IMG/VR virus record: IMGVR_UViG_3300012948_000010
Coordinates: 1 to 36,012 of that record
Reading direction: 5' to 3' (one strand)
Length of the DNA: 36,012 nt
Source of the DNA: a virus
Lineage: Duplodnaviria; Caudoviricetes
The stretch's first letter is position 1; every line of letters begins with the position of its first letter. The position numbers and the translations under genes were made by a program. Under the pieces are notes generated by a model. That model was not told the DNA's origin. It saw only the letters and a list, made by a program, of their open reading frames with translations, and did no database searches. Positions 3,539 to 35,184 of this stretch are shown here, piece after piece.

Positions 3539-3701
3539 AAAGGGCGTCGGCCGTGTCAAGCGGGGAAGACCACGGAAAATCCGAATGAAGAAGTCTTTTT
3601 CAAGGCGCGTGCTCGGTCGTGGAAAAAAGGGAATTGCAACTCCGAGACAAAAAGCGGCGACGGTTGGACGTAACAGGGTACGCCGGTCGAGGAGGAGGTA
3701 A
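3522..3701 (+). CDS. 59-aa Arg/Lys-rich peptide with AT-hook motif (not in ORF track)
   Basis: Hand translation MHRPGRKGVGRVKRGRPRKIRMKKSFSRRVLGRGKKGIATPRQKAATVGRNRVRRSRRR; GGAG upstream; TAATG coupling to next gene; 26 K/R, no D/E. Confidence 0.7.
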   Translation: MHRPGRKGVGRVKRGRPRKIRMKKSFSRRVLGRGKKGIATPRQKAATVGRNRVRRSRRR

Positions 3702-3907
3702 TGGCTAGACGCAAAAAGAAATTCATAAAGAAGGCCATCAAGCGACCGGGAGCATTCCGGGCGAAGGCAAAGCGGGCAGGAATGTCAACGAATGCCTATG
3801 CACGGAAGGTAACGCGAAAGGGAAGCAAAGCAAGTGCCCGGACGAAAAGACAGGCCAACCTTGCGTTGACACTTGGGAAAATGCGAAGGAAACGAAGGAG
3901 GCGATGA
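3701..3907 (+). CDS. 68-aa protamine-like basic protein
   Basis: 29 K/R, no D/E; GAGGAGG upstream; TAATG and ATGA overlaps on either side. Confidence 0.8.
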   Translation: MARRKKKFIKKAIKRPGAFRAKAKRAGMSTNAYARKVTRKGSKASARTKRQANLALTLGKMRRKRRRR

Positions 3908-4059
3908 ATTTGGCGTCGAAAGGACTTCGGAGTGCTCCCAGTCGCATAATCAACCTGCGGCGCAACGTCTACATCTCCCCGGCCCGCGTCATGAGCGGCG
4001 TCAAGAAGTATTCGCCCTTCTCCCAGCGGGCCAACCGAGTCCAGTGGAGGAGGTTCTAA
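3904..4059 (+). CDS. 51-aa basic peptide (not in ORF track)
   Basis: MNLASKGLRSAPSRIINLRRNVYISPARVMSGVKKYSPFSQRANRVQWRRF; AAGGAGG upstream; ATGA overlap; no acidic residues. Confidence 0.7.
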   Translation: MNLASKGLRSAPSRIINLRRNVYISPARVMSGVKKYSPFSQRANRVQWRRF

Positions 4060-4179
4060 ATGAAAAGGCTGTTGAATCGAGCCTACGCCATCACTAAAGT
4101 CAAGTTGACCAAGCCGCTTGACGGGAAGAATCACAACGTCGGCTACGTCGGCGGGATTCCAAAGAAGGGAGGGAAATAG
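4060..4179 (+). CDS. 39-aa basic peptide (not in ORF track)
   Basis: MKRLLNRAYAITKVKLTKPLDGKNHNVGYVGGIPKKGGK; GGAGGAGG RBS; abuts neighbours as TAA-ATG and TAG-ATG. Confidence 0.65.
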   Translation: MKRLLNRAYAITKVKLTKPLDGKNHNVGYVGGIPKKGGK

Positions 4180-4560
4180 ATGACCCGAATCATCTCCGGT
4201 GGAGGAGCGGCCGGAAGCAAGATCGTAGGACGCCCCGGCGGCTATGCAGGATTGAAAAAGACTGGCCTTCTGACGAGGGCAAACAAGATCAAGCATGTGA
4301 CTCCCCAGAGAGTCCGCAGGCTGTACGCTCGTAGCCCGTCGAACCGGACTGCAATCATCGGAACGAGCAAGGACGTTCTGATGGATTCCAACTTGAAATG
4401 GAACCTGGCTTCTGTCCGGATGCGGGATTCCAACCAATTCACTCCGTTCGGCAAGCGCAAGCTCAAGGTTGCCCCTGGCACGGCCGATCAGGGAAACAAC
4501 GCAAGGGAGCGCCGTCAGCCGAACAAGAACTACACGAACCTCAAGATCGTCAAATACTAA
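4180..4560 (+). CDS. 126-aa basic protein
   Basis: K/R-rich; GGGAGGG RBS; TAATG coupling to the protease gene. Confidence 0.75.
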   Translation: MTRIISGGGAAGSKIVGRPGGYAGLKKTGLLTRANKIKHVTPQRVRRLYARSPSNRTAIIGTSKDVLMDSNLKWNLASVRMRDSNQFTPFGKRKLKVAPGTADQGNNARERRQPNKNYTNLKIVKY

Positions 4561-10038: not shown

Positions 10039-12933
10039 ATGGCACGCTTCGGTCGAGCATATCCCCGGCAAGTCCAAACCTATATCAAGGCTGCTCCTCC
10101 GCGAGCGCCGGTCAATACGCCTGTCCAGATGGACGCTTCGGTAACGCTTACCGCCGCAGTTCAAAAGAAGATTTCAAAGGCATTGGCCGTAGGCCAGTAC
10201 GTTGATCGTATTCTGGGTTTGAGCCCGGTTGGCTACTGGCGGCTCGGTGAGCCTTCGGGAACGGTTGCAGCCGATAAAACGTCCAACAACAATACCGGAA
10301 CGTATGTCAATTCACCGACGCTCAATGTCGCTGGATTGATTTCAGACACCGACAAGGCCGTTACCTTTGACGGTACGGACGACCAAGTAACCGTCGCGCA
10401 CTCAACGTCGATAGATGTCGGCAGCACGTTTTCAGTTGAATTCTGGATGAAAACTTCCATGTCTTCCTCGGGCACGCTCTTCGACCGAGGTTCGCCTGCG
10501 TTTCGGATACTTGTCAATACGGGCTTGCCGGTCGGAGGCAGCATCGGCTTTGGAATTGTCGCAGCGGATTGGTGCGCATACTCGTCCATAACCGTTTGTG
10601 ATGGGGTCACGCATCACGTCGTTATTACAAATACGGGCTCAACTCCGAAGGTTTACGTTGACGGCGTAGATCGAACGTCAACGTGGAATCCTTCTGCGCC
10701 GGGAGCCAATACGTCACAAGGACTTTCAATTGGGCGGCAACTTGACAACTCAAACCCGTTCAATGGAACAATTGACGAGGTTGCCTTTTACAATTATGTC
10801 CTAACCGCTCAACAGGTTCTCGATAATTACAACGCCGGTATTTCACCCGGCGTTGCGCTCAAGCCCGCTATGGTCGTGCAGAAGACATTTCCGAGGACGC
10901 TGAGCTTGACGGTAACGCTGACGGCGGCAATGACCAGGGTTGCGAAGTTCCTGCGAACTCAAGCGGTTACGGTAACGCTCACAGCGGCGATGACGAGAGT
11001 GGTCTTGTTCCCGCGGACGCTTTCTCAAACTGTCACGCTAACTCCAACGCAAACAAAGGTGGCGGTCTATCTGAGGACAAATGCCGTGACGGTGACGTTG
11101 ACGGCAGCAATGACGAAGATAATGAAAGCCCCGAGGACGCTATCGACTGGAATTACATTGACCGGGGCAATGACGAAGGTAATGAATGCTCCAAGAACAC
11201 TGGCGGCTGGAATTACATTCACGCTCAACCTCGTCCGGAACGTGGGCAAGTTCTTTGCGCAGTCGATCACGTTTACAAATGCCCAGACCGTGCTCAGGAA
11301 GTTCTACCGTACGAACGCGGTAACGGTGACGATTACTCCGGTGCTGACGACTTTTCAACACTACTATCGAGCATTGGCCGCTTCGTTGACTTTCACCAAT
11401 ACCGTAACTCCGGTTTATCATGCAGGCTCGGTCAACAACCCGGTTTCACTTCCGGCATCGGTCACATTCACCCTGGCGATGTCAAGGAACATTTCAAAGT
11501 CGCTAGCTCAGTCGATCACGTTCACCAATGTCTTGTCGCTTTTCAAACAGTTCTACCGAACGAATGCTGTCGCCGTAACCCTGACTCCTACCCAAACACG
11601 GTTGAGGCTCGCTCCTCGGACGCTGACGCTCACCGTAACCCTAACGGCGGCAATGACGAATGTGAAAAACGCTCCGAGGACACTGGCTCAGGGAATCACC
11701 CTGACTCCGACGATGACGTTCTTTGCAATTCATTATCGAGCGATCACAGGAGCGATCACCTTCACGGCGACTCAGGCGACGTTCAAGCAGTTTTTCCGGG
11801 CGATGCCGATAACGGTGACGCTGATTCCAAATCAAACGCGGTTCTTGAAATTCCTCCGCACAATGTCCCAGACGGTGACGTTGACACCGAACCTGCTCCG
11901 GGGAGCTTCACAAGCGATCACCCTGCCGACTTCGATCACCTTCACCGTGGCCCAATTGAAAAATGTTCGCTACTTCCCCGCAGTCATTGTCACTCTGGCC
12001 GGGAACATGCTCAATCAGGCCAAGCATCCTCGGACGTTGGGAGCCTCTCTAAGCCTCTCTGCCGTTCAGACCCTAGTTACCCTCCACCTGAGGACTCTCA
12101 GCGCCTCAGTGACGCTTACAGCGGCTCAGACGAAGGTTCGTGGCTACCCCCGAACCCTGTCTCAGACCGTAACGCTCACTCCGACCCAGGTTCGGGTCGC
12201 AAAGCACGTCCAGAATCCGGCCGTCACGCTCACGTTGACGCCGACAATGCAAAACCTGGACAAGTTTTTCAGAACGATGGCGCTGACTGAGACGATTACG
12301 CCGGTCATGACTTCATCGAGCCTTCATTCCAGCAACATTTCAATGCCGGTCACGATCACCTTGACTCCGAGCCTCGTTCGGAGATGGTTGGCCCTGCGGA
12401 CTCTCTCGACCGGGGTGACGTTGACTCCTGCGCAGACGAAGGTTCCAAATCATCCGCGCTCCTTCGCGGTCACGGTTACTCTGGCCGCAATTCAATTCCG
12501 GCTCGCTCATTACTACCGGACGATGCCGGTAACTCCGACATTCACGGTCACGCAGACTAATCGGGGATTTCATTTCCGGCAAATGGACGGCACGGTCATT
12601 TTCGTGCCAAACTTGGGAGTGAAGAAGATACCGAGAATCGTCCTGGCTACCGTCGTCAATTTCATTGCCGCTCTCAACGTCGGCAAGAAACAGAATCCGG
12701 TTTTGCTTCCTCTCACCGTCACCTTCGCGGTGGCAATGAAGATTTACAAGGTCAAGGAGAAATTCCAAAACCTGATGACGACGATCTTCCGGGCTCGGCT
12801 TTGGGGAGCGAAGGTCGAGGGCGACGGAATGCAGGTAGAAGTTATTTCAAAGCCGACTGTCCGGGGAACTATCTCACAGGCCGAGCTTCATGGAGCAGAA
12901 ATTCAAGACCCTGATCTAGAGGAGGTTCTATAG
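10039..12933 (+). CDS. Fibre-like protein: LamG/ConA-like domain plus about 30 tandem ~20-aa repeats
   Basis: GYWRLGE...FNGTIDEVAFYNYVLT LamG signature, then repeats such as FPRTLSQTVTLTPTQTKVAV. Confidence 0.75.
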   Translation: MARFGRAYPRQVQTYIKAAPPRAPVNTPVQMDASVTLTAAVQKKISKALAVGQYVDRILGLSPVGYWRLGEPSGTVAADKTSNNNTGTYVNSPTLNVAGLISDTDKAVTFDGTDDQVTVAHSTSIDVGSTFSVEFWMKTSMSSSGTLFDRGSPAFRILVNTGLPVGGSIGFGIVAADWCAYSSITVCDGVTHHVVITNTGSTPKVYVDGVDRTSTWNPSAPGANTSQGLSIGRQLDNSNPFNGTIDEVAFYNYVLTAQQVLDNYNAGISPGVALKPAMVVQKTFPRTLSLTVTLTAAMTRVAKFLRTQAVTVTLTAAMTRVVLFPRTLSQTVTLTPTQTKVAVYLRTNAVTVTLTAAMTKIMKAPRTLSTGITLTGAMTKVMNAPRTLAAGITFTLNLVRNVGKFFAQSITFTNAQTVLRKFYRTNAVTVTITPVLTTFQHYYRALAASLTFTNTVTPVYHAGSVNNPVSLPASVTFTLAMSRNISKSLAQSITFTNVLSLFKQFYRTNAVAVTLTPTQTRLRLAPRTLTLTVTLTAAMTNVKNAPRTLAQGITLTPTMTFFAIHYRAITGAITFTATQATFKQFFRAMPITVTLIPNQTRFLKFLRTMSQTVTLTPNLLRGASQAITLPTSITFTVAQLKNVRYFPAVIVTLAGNMLNQAKHPRTLGASLSLSAVQTLVTLHLRTLSASVTLTAAQTKVRGYPRTLSQTVTLTPTQVRVAKHVQNPAVTLTLTPTMQNLDKFFRTMALTETITPVMTSSSLHSSNISMPVTITLTPSLVRRWLALRTLSTGVTLTPAQTKVPNHPRSFAVTVTLAAIQFRLAHYYRTMPVTPTFTVTQTNRGFHFRQMDGTVIFVPNLGVKKIPRIVLATVVNFIAALNVGKKQNPVLLPLTVTFAVAMKIYKVKEKFQNLMTTIFRARLWGAKVEGDGMQVEVISKPTVRGTISQAELHGAEIQDPDLEEVL
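10888..12750 (+). repeat. Degenerate ~60-bp coding tandem repeats
   Basis: Protein consensus approximately (F/Y/H/A)xRTLxxxVTLTxxxT, with a few 17-18-aa units. Confidence 0.8.
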
Positions 12934-31373: not shown

Positions 31374-31628
31374 ATGGAGGCAAGCAAAGACGATGTAATT
31401 TTTCTCCTGGGGGAAAAGGAAGTCAGGATACGGCAACTCCAGCACGAATTACAAATAACGCAAATTCAACTTGAAGAAGCGGCAAAGCAATTGCACGAAA
31501 TGAAAGCCAAATACGAACCGGAGGGAGACGATGACGGAAGAGACGACGGAGATGGAGGAGATTCCGGGCCTGGAGGTAACGGAAGAGACTCCGGCGGAAT
31601 TGTCCGCCCGGAAATCTGGAAACCGTAG
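31374..31628 (+). CDS. Small coiled-coil protein (possible fibre chaperone)
   Basis: GGAGG-rich RBS; heptad-like segment; follows the fibre gene. Confidence 0.55.
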   Translation: MEASKDDVIFLLGEKEVRIRQLQHELQITQIQLEEAAKQLHEMKAKYEPEGDDDGRDDGDGGDSGPGGNGRDSGGIVRPEIWKP

Positions 31629-32364
31629 GACGCTGCACCTTGTCTCACCTCCGATGCGGGGCAGGGACGTAAAGGAAATTCAATGGCTTCTCAACGGCCA
31701 CGATCCCTCGGCCTGGCAGAAGAAGGATGTCCAGTATCCGATCATTTATCATTTCCCCATCGACGGGGTATTTGGTCGTCAAACGGCCAACCGAGTTTTC
31801 AGGGCGCAGTCGTGGCTCGGATATGAGCATCCTTCCAGGGCAGCCGGTCAGGACTTCTACGATTTCATGATCGGCAAGAAAAAGCTCACGAAGGAAATGC
31901 AACATCGACGTGGTGAGCGGATCAGGGAAGCGAAGAAGTCAACCGGCAAGAAGGCAGGAGCGGTTGAGGCTCTGAGGAAGCACATGGGGCTCGGAGAGTC
32001 CCCGCCTGGATCGAATTGTCAAATGTTCGGCTCCTGGTATCACATGAATTGTGTCGCGTGGTGCGCCATCTCCTGCTCGTGGGCGTTCGATCAGGTTGGA
32101 ATTCATTTCCGGCATTCCTACGTTCCTGAAATTCTCGATGATGCTCGCTGGGGTCGAGAGGGTTTGCACATCACCGGCTTTCCCGAAAAGGGCGATCTTT
32201 TCATTGTCCCGCCAGCGGTGCATGTGGGGTTCTTCGACAAGTGGGGCTCGGGCGGATATTTTCATACTGTCGAGGGAAACCACGGCGATCATGTCGCTGC
32301 GGATTACAGACATCGAAGTTCAATTCAAGCGTTCATCCGAGTGGAAGGGCCGAGACATGCCTAG
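31531..32364 (+). CDS. Endolysin: peptidoglycan-binding domain plus CHAP amidase/peptidase
   Basis: MRGRDVKEIQWLL...IDGVFGRQT; AWCAISCSWA, HVGF, TVEGN. Confidence 0.82.
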   Translation: MTEETTEMEEIPGLEVTEETPAELSARKSGNRRTLHLVSPPMRGRDVKEIQWLLNGHDPSAWQKKDVQYPIIYHFPIDGVFGRQTANRVFRAQSWLGYEHPSRAAGQDFYDFMIGKKKLTKEMQHRRGERIREAKKSTGKKAGAVEALRKHMGLGESPPGSNCQMFGSWYHMNCVAWCAISCSWAFDQVGIHFRHSYVPEILDDARWGREGLHITGFPEKGDLFIVPPAVHVGFFDKWGSGGYFHTVEGNHGDHVAADYRHRSSIQAFIRVEGPRHA

Positions 32365-33070
32365 CTGGGGATGGGAAGAAGGAGCTTTCAAGTACGGTCA
32401 GCGGTACGACGATACGGCCGAAGTCGATAGTTTTCAATTCCGGCGTGCTCATGCCATCCTCGGTTACAAGGATTTGCTCCAGCGAGTCACGAACCGGAAA
32501 GTCAAGGACACCCCGGCGTTCGGTGATGCGACCAAGAACGCAGTCAAAGACGTTCAAGCCGCAAACGGAATGCCGGTTGATGGAATTCTAGGATTTCAAA
32601 CTGCCAGAGTCTTGTGCTGGTGCTCGCACTCCTCCATTGTCCGGGAAGTGGAGTCGGACATGGGCGTGCCCAATCAGTACGTCGGTAGGATCGGGGCGTT
32701 GGAATCCGAGTATTACCTTGCAGCACGGTATGAGCTAGACAGTGGCAATGACCGGGGAGCATTTCAAATCCATGACTCATTTGAACCGGCGCAGGATTAT
32801 CGGAATGTTGAAAAACAGGCACGCTGGACTGCGGACAGACTCATTGCTACGCACAGGAAATTGAAAGAAGAGCATCCGGGCCACACATGGACTCAGTATT
32901 GGTGGAGCGCAATCTTCGCCCACAATGCGCCTGCGTGGGCTCCTGAGTGGCTCGATGCAAATTGTCCGACCTCGGGGGGAGGCACGATCCACGTAGGCAA
33001 TTGGGAGGGAGACAAGTTTGCATGGGCAACTCTCTACACTCATGCGGTGTTGAATAGGAGATGCCAGTAG
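32357..33070 (+). CDS. Second lysin: peptidoglycan-binding domain plus lysozyme-like domain
   Basis: Start reassigned to ATG 32357. FGDATKNAVKDVQAANGMPVDGILG; LESEY...DRGAFQI...AIFAHN. Confidence 0.75.
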   Translation: MPSWGWEEGAFKYGQRYDDTAEVDSFQFRRAHAILGYKDLLQRVTNRKVKDTPAFGDATKNAVKDVQAANGMPVDGILGFQTARVLCWCSHSSIVREVESDMGVPNQYVGRIGALESEYYLAARYELDSGNDRGAFQIHDSFEPAQDYRNVEKQARWTADRLIATHRKLKEEHPGHTWTQYWWSAIFAHNAPAWAPEWLDANCPTSGGGTIHVGNWEGDKFAWATLYTHAVLNRRCQ

Positions 33071-33240
33071 CAAATGAAAATGGGCAGTACCGTTACATAC
33101 ATCTCGTCCGAGCTTGGGCAATCACCATTTTGGGGGTCGTTGGAATCATTTACGGGCTCATTGACAAAAGCTCCGAGACGATCATGCTTGGCTTCACCGT
33201 GCTTGGTTGCGAACCGATGATCCGAGCAAAGGGGTCATGA
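33061..33240 (+). CDS. 59-aa membrane protein, holin-like (not in ORF track)
   Basis: MPVANENGQYRYIHLVRAWAITILGVVGIIYGLIDKSSETIMLGFTVLGCEPMIRAKGS; two hydrophobic stretches; overlaps both neighbours. Confidence 0.6.
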   Translation: MPVANENGQYRYIHLVRAWAITILGVVGIIYGLIDKSSETIMLGFTVLGCEPMIRAKGS

Positions 33241-33542
33241 GTACGCGGGCTTGGATTTACGTTTCACTGGCCTATGCGCTTCTCGCTATCGGCATGGTCG
33301 TCAGTCTGTGGTATTTCAGCCGTACCACGGATCGGCTGGACAAACATCAAAAGGAAATAAAGGCAACGCTTATCGTTCTCAGGCGACGAGTAGTAGAAGT
33401 CAAACAGGCCAGCATTGTCTTCTGTGAGGTTTCAAGACGGAATGACATCGGTGAGGCGACCGTCCTCTTGGAACTTTCAAATGGTCGCAATGTCAAGGTC
33501 AGTCCTGAGTGCGTGAAACTCATTCATAGAATATTCAAATAA
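33237..33542 (+). CDS. Single-pass membrane protein of the lysis block
   Basis: ATGA overlap start; N-terminal TM (WIYVSLAYALLAIGMVVSLWYF), coiled segment, two Cys. Confidence 0.65.
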   Translation: MSTRAWIYVSLAYALLAIGMVVSLWYFSRTTDRLDKHQKEIKATLIVLRRRVVEVKQASIVFCEVSRRNDIGEATVLLELSNGRNVKVSPECVKLIHRIFK

Positions 33543-33552
33543 AGGAGGATGA

Positions 33553-34383
33553 ATGGAGACAGTTCAAGTCGATGGATTCCGAACCGGAAAACAGGAGTAC
33601 GAACATGACCCGCATACACTCATGCTCGGTGACTTTCTGGCCGAGGACATCGTGTATCCAGTTCCATTTGACTTTGACCATAACCGACGGCCGTTCCCAA
33701 CGAACGTTTGGGGCAACGATGCTTACGGAGATTGCGTGTTTGCAGGACGCGCAAATAACTTGCTGCGACTTGAAAGAGTGGAAACTAGAAATACCGTCCC
33801 GCTCACCGACCAACAAGTCGTCGATGAATACAAACTCCGAACGGGCTGCCAGACTCCGGGAGACGCTAAGGACAGGGGCTACTCTGTAATTCAAGCTCTC
33901 CGTGAATGGAGGCATGGCTGGGAATTGCATTTTCCCGATACAAAGGTTACGGAGCGAACCTACTCCATTGCAGCCTTCGGAGAACTCAATCCAGGAGATG
34001 AGAAGCAACTGCGGACAGCTATCTATCTCCTGCATGGAATTCAACTTGGTCTTTGGCTACCGCTTACAGCGCTGGAACAATTGCAAAATGCAATCAAGGC
34101 GGGGAGGCCCTGCATCTGGGATTACGTGCCCGATACACCGCGAAATCGACCGGGCTCGTGGGGCGGGCATCTCGTGTATTCCAAGCGATACGACGAGGAT
34201 TTGATCTGGGATTTGACCTGGGGGATGGAGGTTGCTATGACTACCTCGTTCACCGATCACTACGCCGATGAAGCGTGGGGCGTAATCGACAACTTCGACC
34301 CGTGGCGTAAGACCCACTATTTCAATGTCAACGCAATGATTGAAAAGATGCGCGAAGTCGGCGTTACAAACATCGAGCAATGA
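33553..34383 (+). CDS. Papain-fold cysteine peptidase-like protein
   Basis: GNDAYGDCVFAG (Cys), WGGHLV (His), LTWG; AAAGGAGG RBS. Confidence 0.7.
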   Translation: METVQVDGFRTGKQEYEHDPHTLMLGDFLAEDIVYPVPFDFDHNRRPFPTNVWGNDAYGDCVFAGRANNLLRLERVETRNTVPLTDQQVVDEYKLRTGCQTPGDAKDRGYSVIQALREWRHGWELHFPDTKVTERTYSIAAFGELNPGDEKQLRTAIYLLHGIQLGLWLPLTALEQLQNAIKAGRPCIWDYVPDTPRNRPGSWGGHLVYSKRYDEDLIWDLTWGMEVAMTTSFTDHYADEAWGVIDNFDPWRKTHYFNVNAMIEKMREVGVTNIEQ

Positions 34384-34447
34384 AAGGAGGCTGGGAAGAC
34401 TTCCCACGCTAGCAGCATGACTTGTAAGCTCACAAGGAGGAAATTCA

Positions 34448-34834
34448 ATTCATCGCTTAGCCGCGATACTGAGTGCGTGTGCCCTTGCACTCACCACAGG
34501 CACGGCAACAGCGCAGGCTCTTTACTGGCCGGGTATCCCCCGGCCTCCTCGTGCAGTCCACCAAGCCATACTGAAAACATTTGGGCCTGTAAAGTACGCA
34601 CGGGCTCAATGCATAGCGTGGTACGAAAATCGCTATGTCTACCGTGGGCGGGGAGCAATCTCAGCAACCAACGACCACGGGCTATTTCAAATTCACAGGC
34701 CAGGCCCATACTGGGTGAAGTGGTGGAGGATTTACAATCCTCTCTACAACGCTCGGGTGGCCTATCGGATGTCAAACCACGGAACGAATTGGTATCCGTG
34801 GTCTGTTTACACCTATCAGCGTCATTGCCGATAA
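34448..34834 (+). CDS. Secreted lysozyme-like/SLT transglycosylase with probable ATT start (not in ORF track)
   Basis: AAGGAGG + 7 nt + ATT; signal peptide HRLAAILSACALALTTGTATAQA; AQCIAWYEN, NDHGLFQI, YNPLYNARVAY, GTNWYPWS. Confidence 0.75.
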   Translation: MHRLAAILSACALALTTGTATAQALYWPGIPRPPRAVHQAILKTFGPVKYARAQCIAWYENRYVYRGRGAISATNDHGLFQIHRPGPYWVKWWRIYNPLYNARVAYRMSNHGTNWYPWSVYTYQRHCR

Positions 34835-34853
34835 TTTGAAAGGAGGGTAGGAC

Positions 34854-35120
34854 ATGAACTGGCTGAATACAAAAACTCCGAACGTCACACTGGCACAAGC
34901 CATAGCCGCTTTGGGCTGGGTGATTACTCAGGCAATTGCAATGGGCTGGCTAGACGGGGATAAAGGTCAATTGTTCTTGCAATTGGGTTCATCCATCATC
35001 GCCGGATTGTGGATGGTCGGAGACGGAATCCTCAGAGCCGGACGGAACCGAGCAAGAGCAGCGGCAATTCAAGCCGGTAATCCCGATCCGGCTCTGACCC
35101 CATCGACAAAGACTCGTTAG
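34854..35120 (+). CDS. Holin-like two-TM protein
   Basis: Two hydrophobic helices and basic C-terminus; AAAGGAGG RBS; last gene of the lysis block. Confidence 0.7.
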   Translation: MNWLNTKTPNVTLAQAIAALGWVITQAIAMGWLDGDKGQLFLQLGSSIIAGLWMVGDGILRAGRNRARAAAIQAGNPDPALTPSTKTR

Positions 35121-35139: not shown

Positions 35140-35184
35140 GGCAGAGGAGTCCCGCCAGTCCCGCCCGGTGAAGACTCCTCTGCC
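35140..35184 (+). terminator. Strong hairpin at end of late operon
   Basis: Perfect 12-bp inverted repeat GGCAGAGGAGTC / GACTCCTCTGCC; only a weak U-tract follows. Confidence 0.55.

Follow-up and report, generated by a model that had tools for sequence, protein, structure and literature searches.

Phages with accessory secreted wall enzymes and genes that start with AUU have both been described before, and AUU starts are rare and sensitive to the initiation factor IF3, as in the case of infC. The Kayvirus enzyme Tgl is phage-encoded, carries a Sec signal peptide with an AXA site and a lysozyme-like domain with a conserved Glu, and acts as an accessory endolysin whose gene lies near those of the main endolysin and the holin (PMC7150955). 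Moreover, Lys44 of the Oenococcus phage fOg44 is a wall enzyme that is exported by Sec without the holin (PMC6116005). AUU or AUA starts have been described for infC and pcnB of E. coli, for ebpA of E. faecalis (PMC4447247) and for cvfC1 and ccpN of S. aureus (PMC13009471). The ATT start attenuates ebpA (PMC4447247), in S. aureus about 10% of the expression from AUG is reached with AUU or AUA (PMC13009471), and in vitro non-AUG initiation suffers under starvation and from ppGpp (PMC5499595). Here, we describe a gene that appears to combine both features. It lies near the end of the virus record IMGVR_UViG_3300012948_000010, which was analysed over its entire length of 36,012 bases (the window), and it encodes a predicted Sec-exported wall hydrolase that is likely to be translated from an ATT codon at position 34448. 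A publication joining secreted phage wall enzymes with non-canonical starts was not found in a partial library, outside of which most subscription journals lie, and the term 'ATT start codon' combined with bacteriophage retrieved only unrelated papers from the same library.

The protein shares with Tgl the type of signal peptide, the kind of domain and the conserved Glu. However, Tgl is a 230-aa homologue of IsaA/SceD whose gene has its own early promoter, whereas the window protein consists of no more than an SLT_3 domain of 104 aa in its mature form and has a probable ATT start; the Tgl paper does not mention the term 'start codon' (PMC7150955). Lys44 is likewise a Sec-exported wall enzyme, but it is the main endolysin and is described as being controlled after export by the membrane potential (PMC6116005), whereas control at initiation may come in addition in the window phage. 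With infC, pcnB, ebpA, cvfC1 and ccpN the locus shares a near-cognate start behind a strong Shine-Dalgarno (SD) sequence and, presumably, attenuated expression, and the ebpA product is also exported. However, all of these genes are chromosomal, none encodes a wall hydrolase, and no phage lysis gene was found among them.

The frame at 34421-34834 is open over 137 codons between TGA 34418-34420 and TAA 34832-34834. As the sequence-only reading had claimed, it contains no ATG, GTG or TTG ahead of the catalytic motifs, the first canonical in-frame codon being GTG 34715, past Glu60 and DHGLFQI. The AAGGAGG at 34434-34440, 7 nt 5' of ATT 34448, was confirmed as well, and a start at this ATT gives a 128-aa product. 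The SD pairing energy ahead of the ATT (-11.2 kcal/mol) is comparable to that of ordinary starts of the phage, and a strong SD, proper spacing and no usable canonical start were thus found together, as in known AUU-type genes. A hand-picked set of 40 gene starts from the window comprises 32 ATG, 6 GTG and 1 TTG, the ATT being the sole non-canonical one. A strong SD and a near-cognate codon ahead of any canonical codon occur in 6 of the 126 stop-free frames of at least 100 codons; in two of these six, a normal start comes just one codon later, and another three run out of frame with, or antisense to, known genes. The codon score of the ATT frame is neutral (-0.01) and speaks in neither direction. 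Read-through of the TGA is unneeded, and the phage ends real genes with TGA. Translation from ATT 34448 is likely, as far as can be judged from the sequence.

The product is supported as an intact, secreted-type and predicted muralytic protein with a lysozyme fold. The Sec signal ending in ATAQA is borne out by a basic n-region, a hydrophobic core (hydropathy 2.4 over 11 residues) and an AXA site; the A-Q-A site argues for cleavage, an uncleaved N-terminal anchor as in a signal-arrest-release (SAR) endolysin being a possible alternative. The lysozyme-like domain proposed from the motifs CIAWYEN, DHGLFQI and NWYPWS, all of which are present, also holds: a search with hidden Markov models gave a match to SLT_3 (PF18896) of 35.6 bits against a curated cut-off of 27, and the structure search indicated a lysozyme-type fold. 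With a pLDDT of 93, the structure model comes closest to c-type lysozyme (Z 10.1, rmsd 2.4, 91 aligned), followed by MltE (Z 8.9), Slt (Z 8.8) and RpfB (Z 6.9, below lysozyme and MltE), and the Foldseek E-values are weak (best 0.067). Glu60 and Asp76 align with lysozyme-like motifs and are the only acidic residues; the net charge of the mature domain is +13. Furthermore, Glu60 and Trp118 are invariant in alignments of 35 and 90 sequences, and Cys55/Cys127 are nearly so in the smaller set. A full-library search yielded 231 relatives, the closest of which (P0002) is 56% identical, and its first residue, a Met, aligns with the ATT codon; a word-index homologue search with the protein alone gave 0 matches. 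An Rpf-like identity, as suggested earlier, was not upheld, with no PF06737 match at E<=1 and a BLASTP E-value of 0.5 against the Rpf of a related phage. Gene 26 of the Streptomyces tectiviruses WheeHeim, Forthebois and RickRoss belongs to the same catalytic family SLT_3 (PF18896) with about 33% identity, but it is annotated as 'glycosyltransferase', lies in a structural region and has a canonical start. For one such gene 26 (L214:2453-3121, MK305890.1), which fits the SLT-like alignment, a lytic transglycosylase is the probable product.

Alleles in other assemblies bear on whether the gene is real and whether its ATT is genuine. A contig of run X1, a separate assembly that may come from the source sample, differs from the window at none of the 341 bases in 34360-34700. 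A relative from one other sample of another study (X2/X4) covers 34412-34660 with 29 differences, of which 15 are listed, the remaining ones presumably lying near the piece ends; among those listed, none changes 34448-50 and one falls into the spacer. Third codon positions account for 10 of the 14 listed coding differences (p 0.004), which in the ATT frame amount to 9 synonymous versus 2 non-synonymous codons, a count that left out one difference inside a local indel pair. Because of this synonymous bias and the lack of a listed change at the ATT, the gene is real and under purifying selection in its frame. It is thus scarcely credible that a sequencing or assembly error masks an ATG: the window is a single metagenomic contig and the comparison covered contigs rather than raw reads, but the separate assembly and the relative from the other sample and study both speak for the ATT. 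The codon could also be a recent lesion of an ATG that has turned the gene off and made it a young pseudogene. The near identity of the region around the ATT in the two alleles seen and the canonical starts of most homologues would fit such a lesion. However, the two ATT alleles come from different samples and have diverged with synonymous bias while their catalytic domains stayed intact, every invariant residue is kept, and the relatives avoid ATG in the same slot, too (3 of 3 have TTG). We therefore consider a young pseudogene improbable.

A 140-codon frame starting at ATG 34417 overlaps the gene. It was rejected as a gene, having no Pfam match, a codon score of -0.23 and 0 synonymous versus 10 non-synonymous changes in the X2/X4 relative; by comparison, 49 of 621 same-length windows in the equivalent frame of real genes are also stop-free. 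Alternatively, ribosomes could enter at ATG 34417, possibly by re-initiation after a coupled upstream open reading frame (uORF), and reach the frame of the wall enzyme by a +1 shift at AGG-AGG, which is the SD itself. Shifting by +1 at AGG-AGG occurs in E. coli, ATG 34417 shares its frame with AGG AGG, and it stands 4 nt past the uORF stop. However, this ATG has no SD, and the SD would fall into its frame in one of three cases by chance. Moreover, the relatives with the same leader lack such an ATG and carry TTG exactly at the place of the ATT, an N-terminus of homologue length is obtained from the ATT alone, and AGG is not very rare in this phage (60 of 462 Arg codons). This route thus seems decidedly improbable, and initiation at the ATT is preferred.

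The same slot is occupied by secreted wall enzymes in related phages. The 28 loci with related capsids include the complete genomes G816 and G821. In these two and in record L456, a signal-bearing gene of the Rpf family (PF06737) follows the homologue of the 276-aa gene at 33553, with a TTG start in each case; in G816, two small genes stand in between. Rpf proteins resemble the window protein in being secreted members of the lysozyme superfamily, but the latter has no PF06737 match and its leader has no c-di-AMP riboswitch. An alignment of SLT domains gave only one weak match, the Rpf of G816, in the 28 capsid-related phage records, which are mostly fragments. The window, G821 and L456 have TTGYAAGCTSACAA directly before the SD in common, despite 34-35% identity of the upstream proteins and enzymes of different families. 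The 12 bases before the SD match G821 and L456 at 10 of 12 positions (about 4e-4 allowing 11 offsets), and the same 12 bases reach at most 8 matches at the 39 other starts of the window. Scanning viral contigs for motif plus SD returned three loci, namely G821, L456 (found by the motif alone) and an unrelated one. In the window, G821 and L456 alike, the motif comes after an AAAGG and a hairpin; AAAGG also lies 28 nt ahead of the shared motif in L455 and L456, and AAAGGAGG stands upstream in the X2/X4 relative. Pattern scans of viral-contig DNA with two leader motifs found 10 and 35 loci, all unrelated, and a broader leader pattern found 48 loci, of which only the two known relatives are relevant.

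The leader had also been proposed to fold into a hairpin over the ribosome-binding site. The 5-bp stem is present at 34421-25/34432-36, where it takes in the first three bases of the SD, but the fold is not significant: it is no better than shuffles in four windows (z -0.36 to +0.33 and -0.86). Given these z-scores and a weak consensus fold of the three leaders (-2.7 kcal/mol), the hairpin was rejected as a significant fold, and the stem is better described as a conserved sequence element. Since the loop but not the register of the stem is kept, the leaders have only a weak consensus fold and the motif before the SD is nearly palindromic, a protein-binding site over the SD appears more likely than a pure RNA stem. 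Rfam had no match in the leader (34100-34499) at E<=10 and none in L454-L456 at E<=1, and only tRNAs were matched in 20 other loci. A c-di-AMP riboswitch, suggested by a resemblance, was rejected for lack of an Rfam match in the leader.

The window encodes terminase, portal, sheath and baseplate and therefore represents the late-gene region of a phage with a contractile tail; the record is about 54% complete and stems from soil metagenome runs. The gene is located where the lysis region ends, between the 276-aa gene and an 88-aa membrane gene. We consider it moderately probable that its product is a weakly ATT-started, Sec-exported accessory endolysin of the Kayvirus Tgl/Lys44 type, which would loosen the wall without bursting the cell until the holin acts. 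The late transcript would be weakly translated from the ATT, with a damping of roughly tenfold if the AUU/AUA reporters in S. aureus are taken as a guide (PMC13009471), and the conserved quasi-palindrome over the SD may be a further brake. The host Sec system would then export the precursor, whose signal would be removed after A-Q-A, leaving a small basic enzyme that would nick the glycan with Glu60, Asp76 possibly helping. Because an enzyme that is exported once made cannot be retained in the cytoplasm, it would be held back at initiation. The analysis lends support to the earlier idea that weak initiation limits the gene. The product had also been called holin-independent, which fits its export but probably not its activation: a holin-like gene follows directly, and characterised secreted endolysins still require a holin for their activation (PMC6116005, PMC7150955). 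Lysis would still wait for the holin to collapse the membrane, as for Lys44 and Tgl. A sensitivity to IF3, ppGpp and the nutrient state would be plausible in view of published work.

With the same ATT start and export, the enzyme could instead be a tool of host physiology, an Rpf-like resuscitation or wall-remodelling factor for dormant soil hosts that is made only during active translation. True Rpf-family genes fill the slot in three relatives, two further endolysin-like genes are already present in the phage, and starvation and ppGpp strongly disfavour non-AUG starts (PMC5499595). However, the gene sits inside the lysis region, flanked by endolysin-like and holin-like genes, a search for a promoter-like site ahead of it found none, and Tgl, which is likewise autolysin-like, behaved as an endolysin (PMC7150955). 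We thus regard a resuscitation or remodelling factor as rather unlikely.

Several observations, besides the weak consensus fold of the leaders, weigh against the accessory endolysin with a weak start. The homologues were inspected for the lack of an ATG, and most of them start canonically, so that the ATT is not a family trait: 168 family open reading frames from viral, metagenome and genome scans formed 39 clusters at 70% identity, and only 4 of the 31 closed and signal-bearing clusters, the window included, have a credible start-less member. A fifth cluster flagged as having no canonical start was a false flag by inspection; the others are L129/L130 (ATC, SD -11.2), L165 (ATT, -7.7) and L171 (unclear). 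In the phylum of G002 (Patescibacteria), 0 of 15 loci were flagged in this way. Moreover, the 70% complete genome G810 has no such gene in the slot, and the three small membrane proteins of the lysis region, including the 88-aa holin candidate, have no family match; relatives of the latter were not found in the viral contigs searched. The ATT allele may also be recently shared rather than long conserved: the X2 and window phages are mosaics, since 34444-34533 shows no listed difference in the X2/X4 relative and the downstream gene is identical in X2. Separately, low-GC secreted genes of the SLT family that have no canonical start were located at L129:2387-2881, L165:376-936 and L171:2198-2677, and L171 has an in-frame stop three codons past an ATG.

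Start codons of wall hydrolases were also scored in genomes of the class of G001 (Thermoleophilia). In the 40 codons ahead of the hydrophobic core, the codon with the best SD support was taken as the start and called non-canonical if its SD was -8 or better and no canonical codon reached -5. Among SLT-like loci, 16 of 30 were non-canonical and 10 canonical, the former belonging to two groups of orthologues. In the first, 12 of 13 members start with CTG and the remaining one with TTG, behind a covarying leader hairpin; in the second, 4 of 4 have ATA/ATC. NlpC/P60 loci were non-canonical in 9 of 30 cases (8 ATC, 1 ATA), canonical in 11 and unclear in 9. As controls, secreted binding proteins gave 0 of 30 (SBP_bac_5) and 0 of 27 scored out of 30 fetched (Peripla_BP_6), that is, 0 of 57 together. 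The Fisher p of 3e-5 for NlpC/P60 versus these controls is overstated, since the matches fall in three or four orthologous groups. An ATA start with a strong SD was found for infC in 4 of 25 genomes (17 unclear). M23 peptidases had 0 of 30 non-canonical starts (18 unclear), which weighs against the weakly started endolysin as well. Furthermore, the capsid was found in 0 of 401 class genomes, and the G816 Rpf in 0 of 5 class genomes, with a weak match in 1 of 5 other genomes. As the phage host is not tied to the class, the pattern may be only a parallel and not that of the host itself. Some of these loci merit a description of their own. The first SLT-like group (L230-L241, L243) is a chromosomal secreted SLT_3-type gene adjoining tRNA genes; its leader hairpin has compensatory changes in 5 of 13 pairs and no Rfam match, and a TTGTAAG-like motif lies further upstream in several members. 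PcsB-like coiled-coil SLT_3 genes (L217, L220-L222) and NlpC/P60 genes (L260, L263-L265, L267, L270, L275, L281, L286) carry ATA/ATC behind strong SDs and are likely truncated by gene callers. In the M23 loci (L404-L433) a recognisable SD is often missing (of the loci with a signal, 18 of 29 were unclear, compared with 4 of 54 in the controls), and these genes are possibly leaderless or use another weak-initiation route.

The features of the locus and its surroundings are compiled in Table 1. The product of 33553-34383, which may be a papain-like cysteine peptidase judging by resemblance only, is acidic, has conserved GDCV and GSWGGH motifs and is kept in at least four relatives. Near the end of the holin-like gene there are two perfect inverted repeats of 11 and 12 bp (35032-35097 and 35140-35184), and six positions within 35045-35117 are not the same in X1 and the window, which shows strain variation there. 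Elsewhere in the window, the 964-aa product of 10039-12933 has an N-terminal part that looks LamG-like, followed by a long, imperfect repeat rich in Thr and Val (TLTxxVTLTxxxT), and three small, very basic open reading frames with strong SDs lie at 3701-4560 between the portal gene and the next head gene.

Table 1 Features of the putatively ATT-started gene, its leader and its surroundings (window positions unless a record is named)
Feature	Position	Strand	Basis or remark
Upstream lysis region: CHAP/peptidoglycan-binding gene and peptidoglycan-binding endolysin-like gene, both without signal peptide, then two small membrane-protein genes	31531..33542	+	endolysin PHROGs, family searches
276-aa gene, PHROG 19005; marks the slot	33553..34383	+	homologues precede secreted wall enzyme in related phages
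10-codon uORF, ATG overlapping upstream stop (ATGA)	34380..34412	+	window sequence
Orphan SD-like AAAGGAGG without usable start	34383..34390	+	
Leader hairpin 1	34389..34410	+	relatives: hairpin of different sequence at same place
Overlapping 140-codon ATG frame	34417..34839	+	substitution pattern not protein-coding
CTTGT/ACAAG stem, quasi-palindrome TTGTAAGCTCACAA (34422-35) abutting SD	34421..34436	+	10/12 bases common to two Rpf-carrying phages
Shine-Dalgarno AAGGAGG	34434..34440	+	7 nt before ATT
ATT start codon (inferred)	34448..34450	+	
Predicted Sec signal peptide, residues 1-24, ending A-Q-A	34448..34519	+	by eye and hydropathy
Mature 104-aa SLT_3 lysozyme-fold domain	34520..34834	+	Glu60 34625-27, Asp76 34673-75, Cys55/Cys127, stop TAA 34832-34
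88-aa gene, two hydrophobic segments, holin-like candidate	34854..35120	+	directly 3' of ATT gene
Perfect 12-bp inverted repeat after cassette	35140..35184	+	possible end of late transcript
Secreted Rpf-family (PF06737) genes, TTG start, end of late region, soil phages	L436:8759-9361; L441:4725-5072; L456:587-895	L456: -	

Taken more broadly, soil phages may carry a throttled wall-enzyme cassette, composed of an orphan SD, a hairpin, a palindromic operator over the SD and a weak start, into which SLT_3 or Rpf enzymes are swapped. This cassette might copy a general bacterial rule by which secreted peptidoglycan hydrolases start with near-cognate codons (ATT/ATC/ATA/CTG), IF3 and ppGpp tying wall cutting, lysis or resuscitation to the translational state, an idea that we put forward only tentatively and with considerable doubt. 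Gene callers miss or truncate such genes, and secreted phage lysins and bacterial autolysins would thus be under-annotated. With 16 of 30 SLT-like and 9 of 30 NlpC/P60 loci set against none of the 57 binding proteins, the idea that wall hydrolases are throttled at the start codon becomes testable. For the phage itself, a weak start would offer a simple answer to the question of how it tolerates a wall enzyme that is exported once made.
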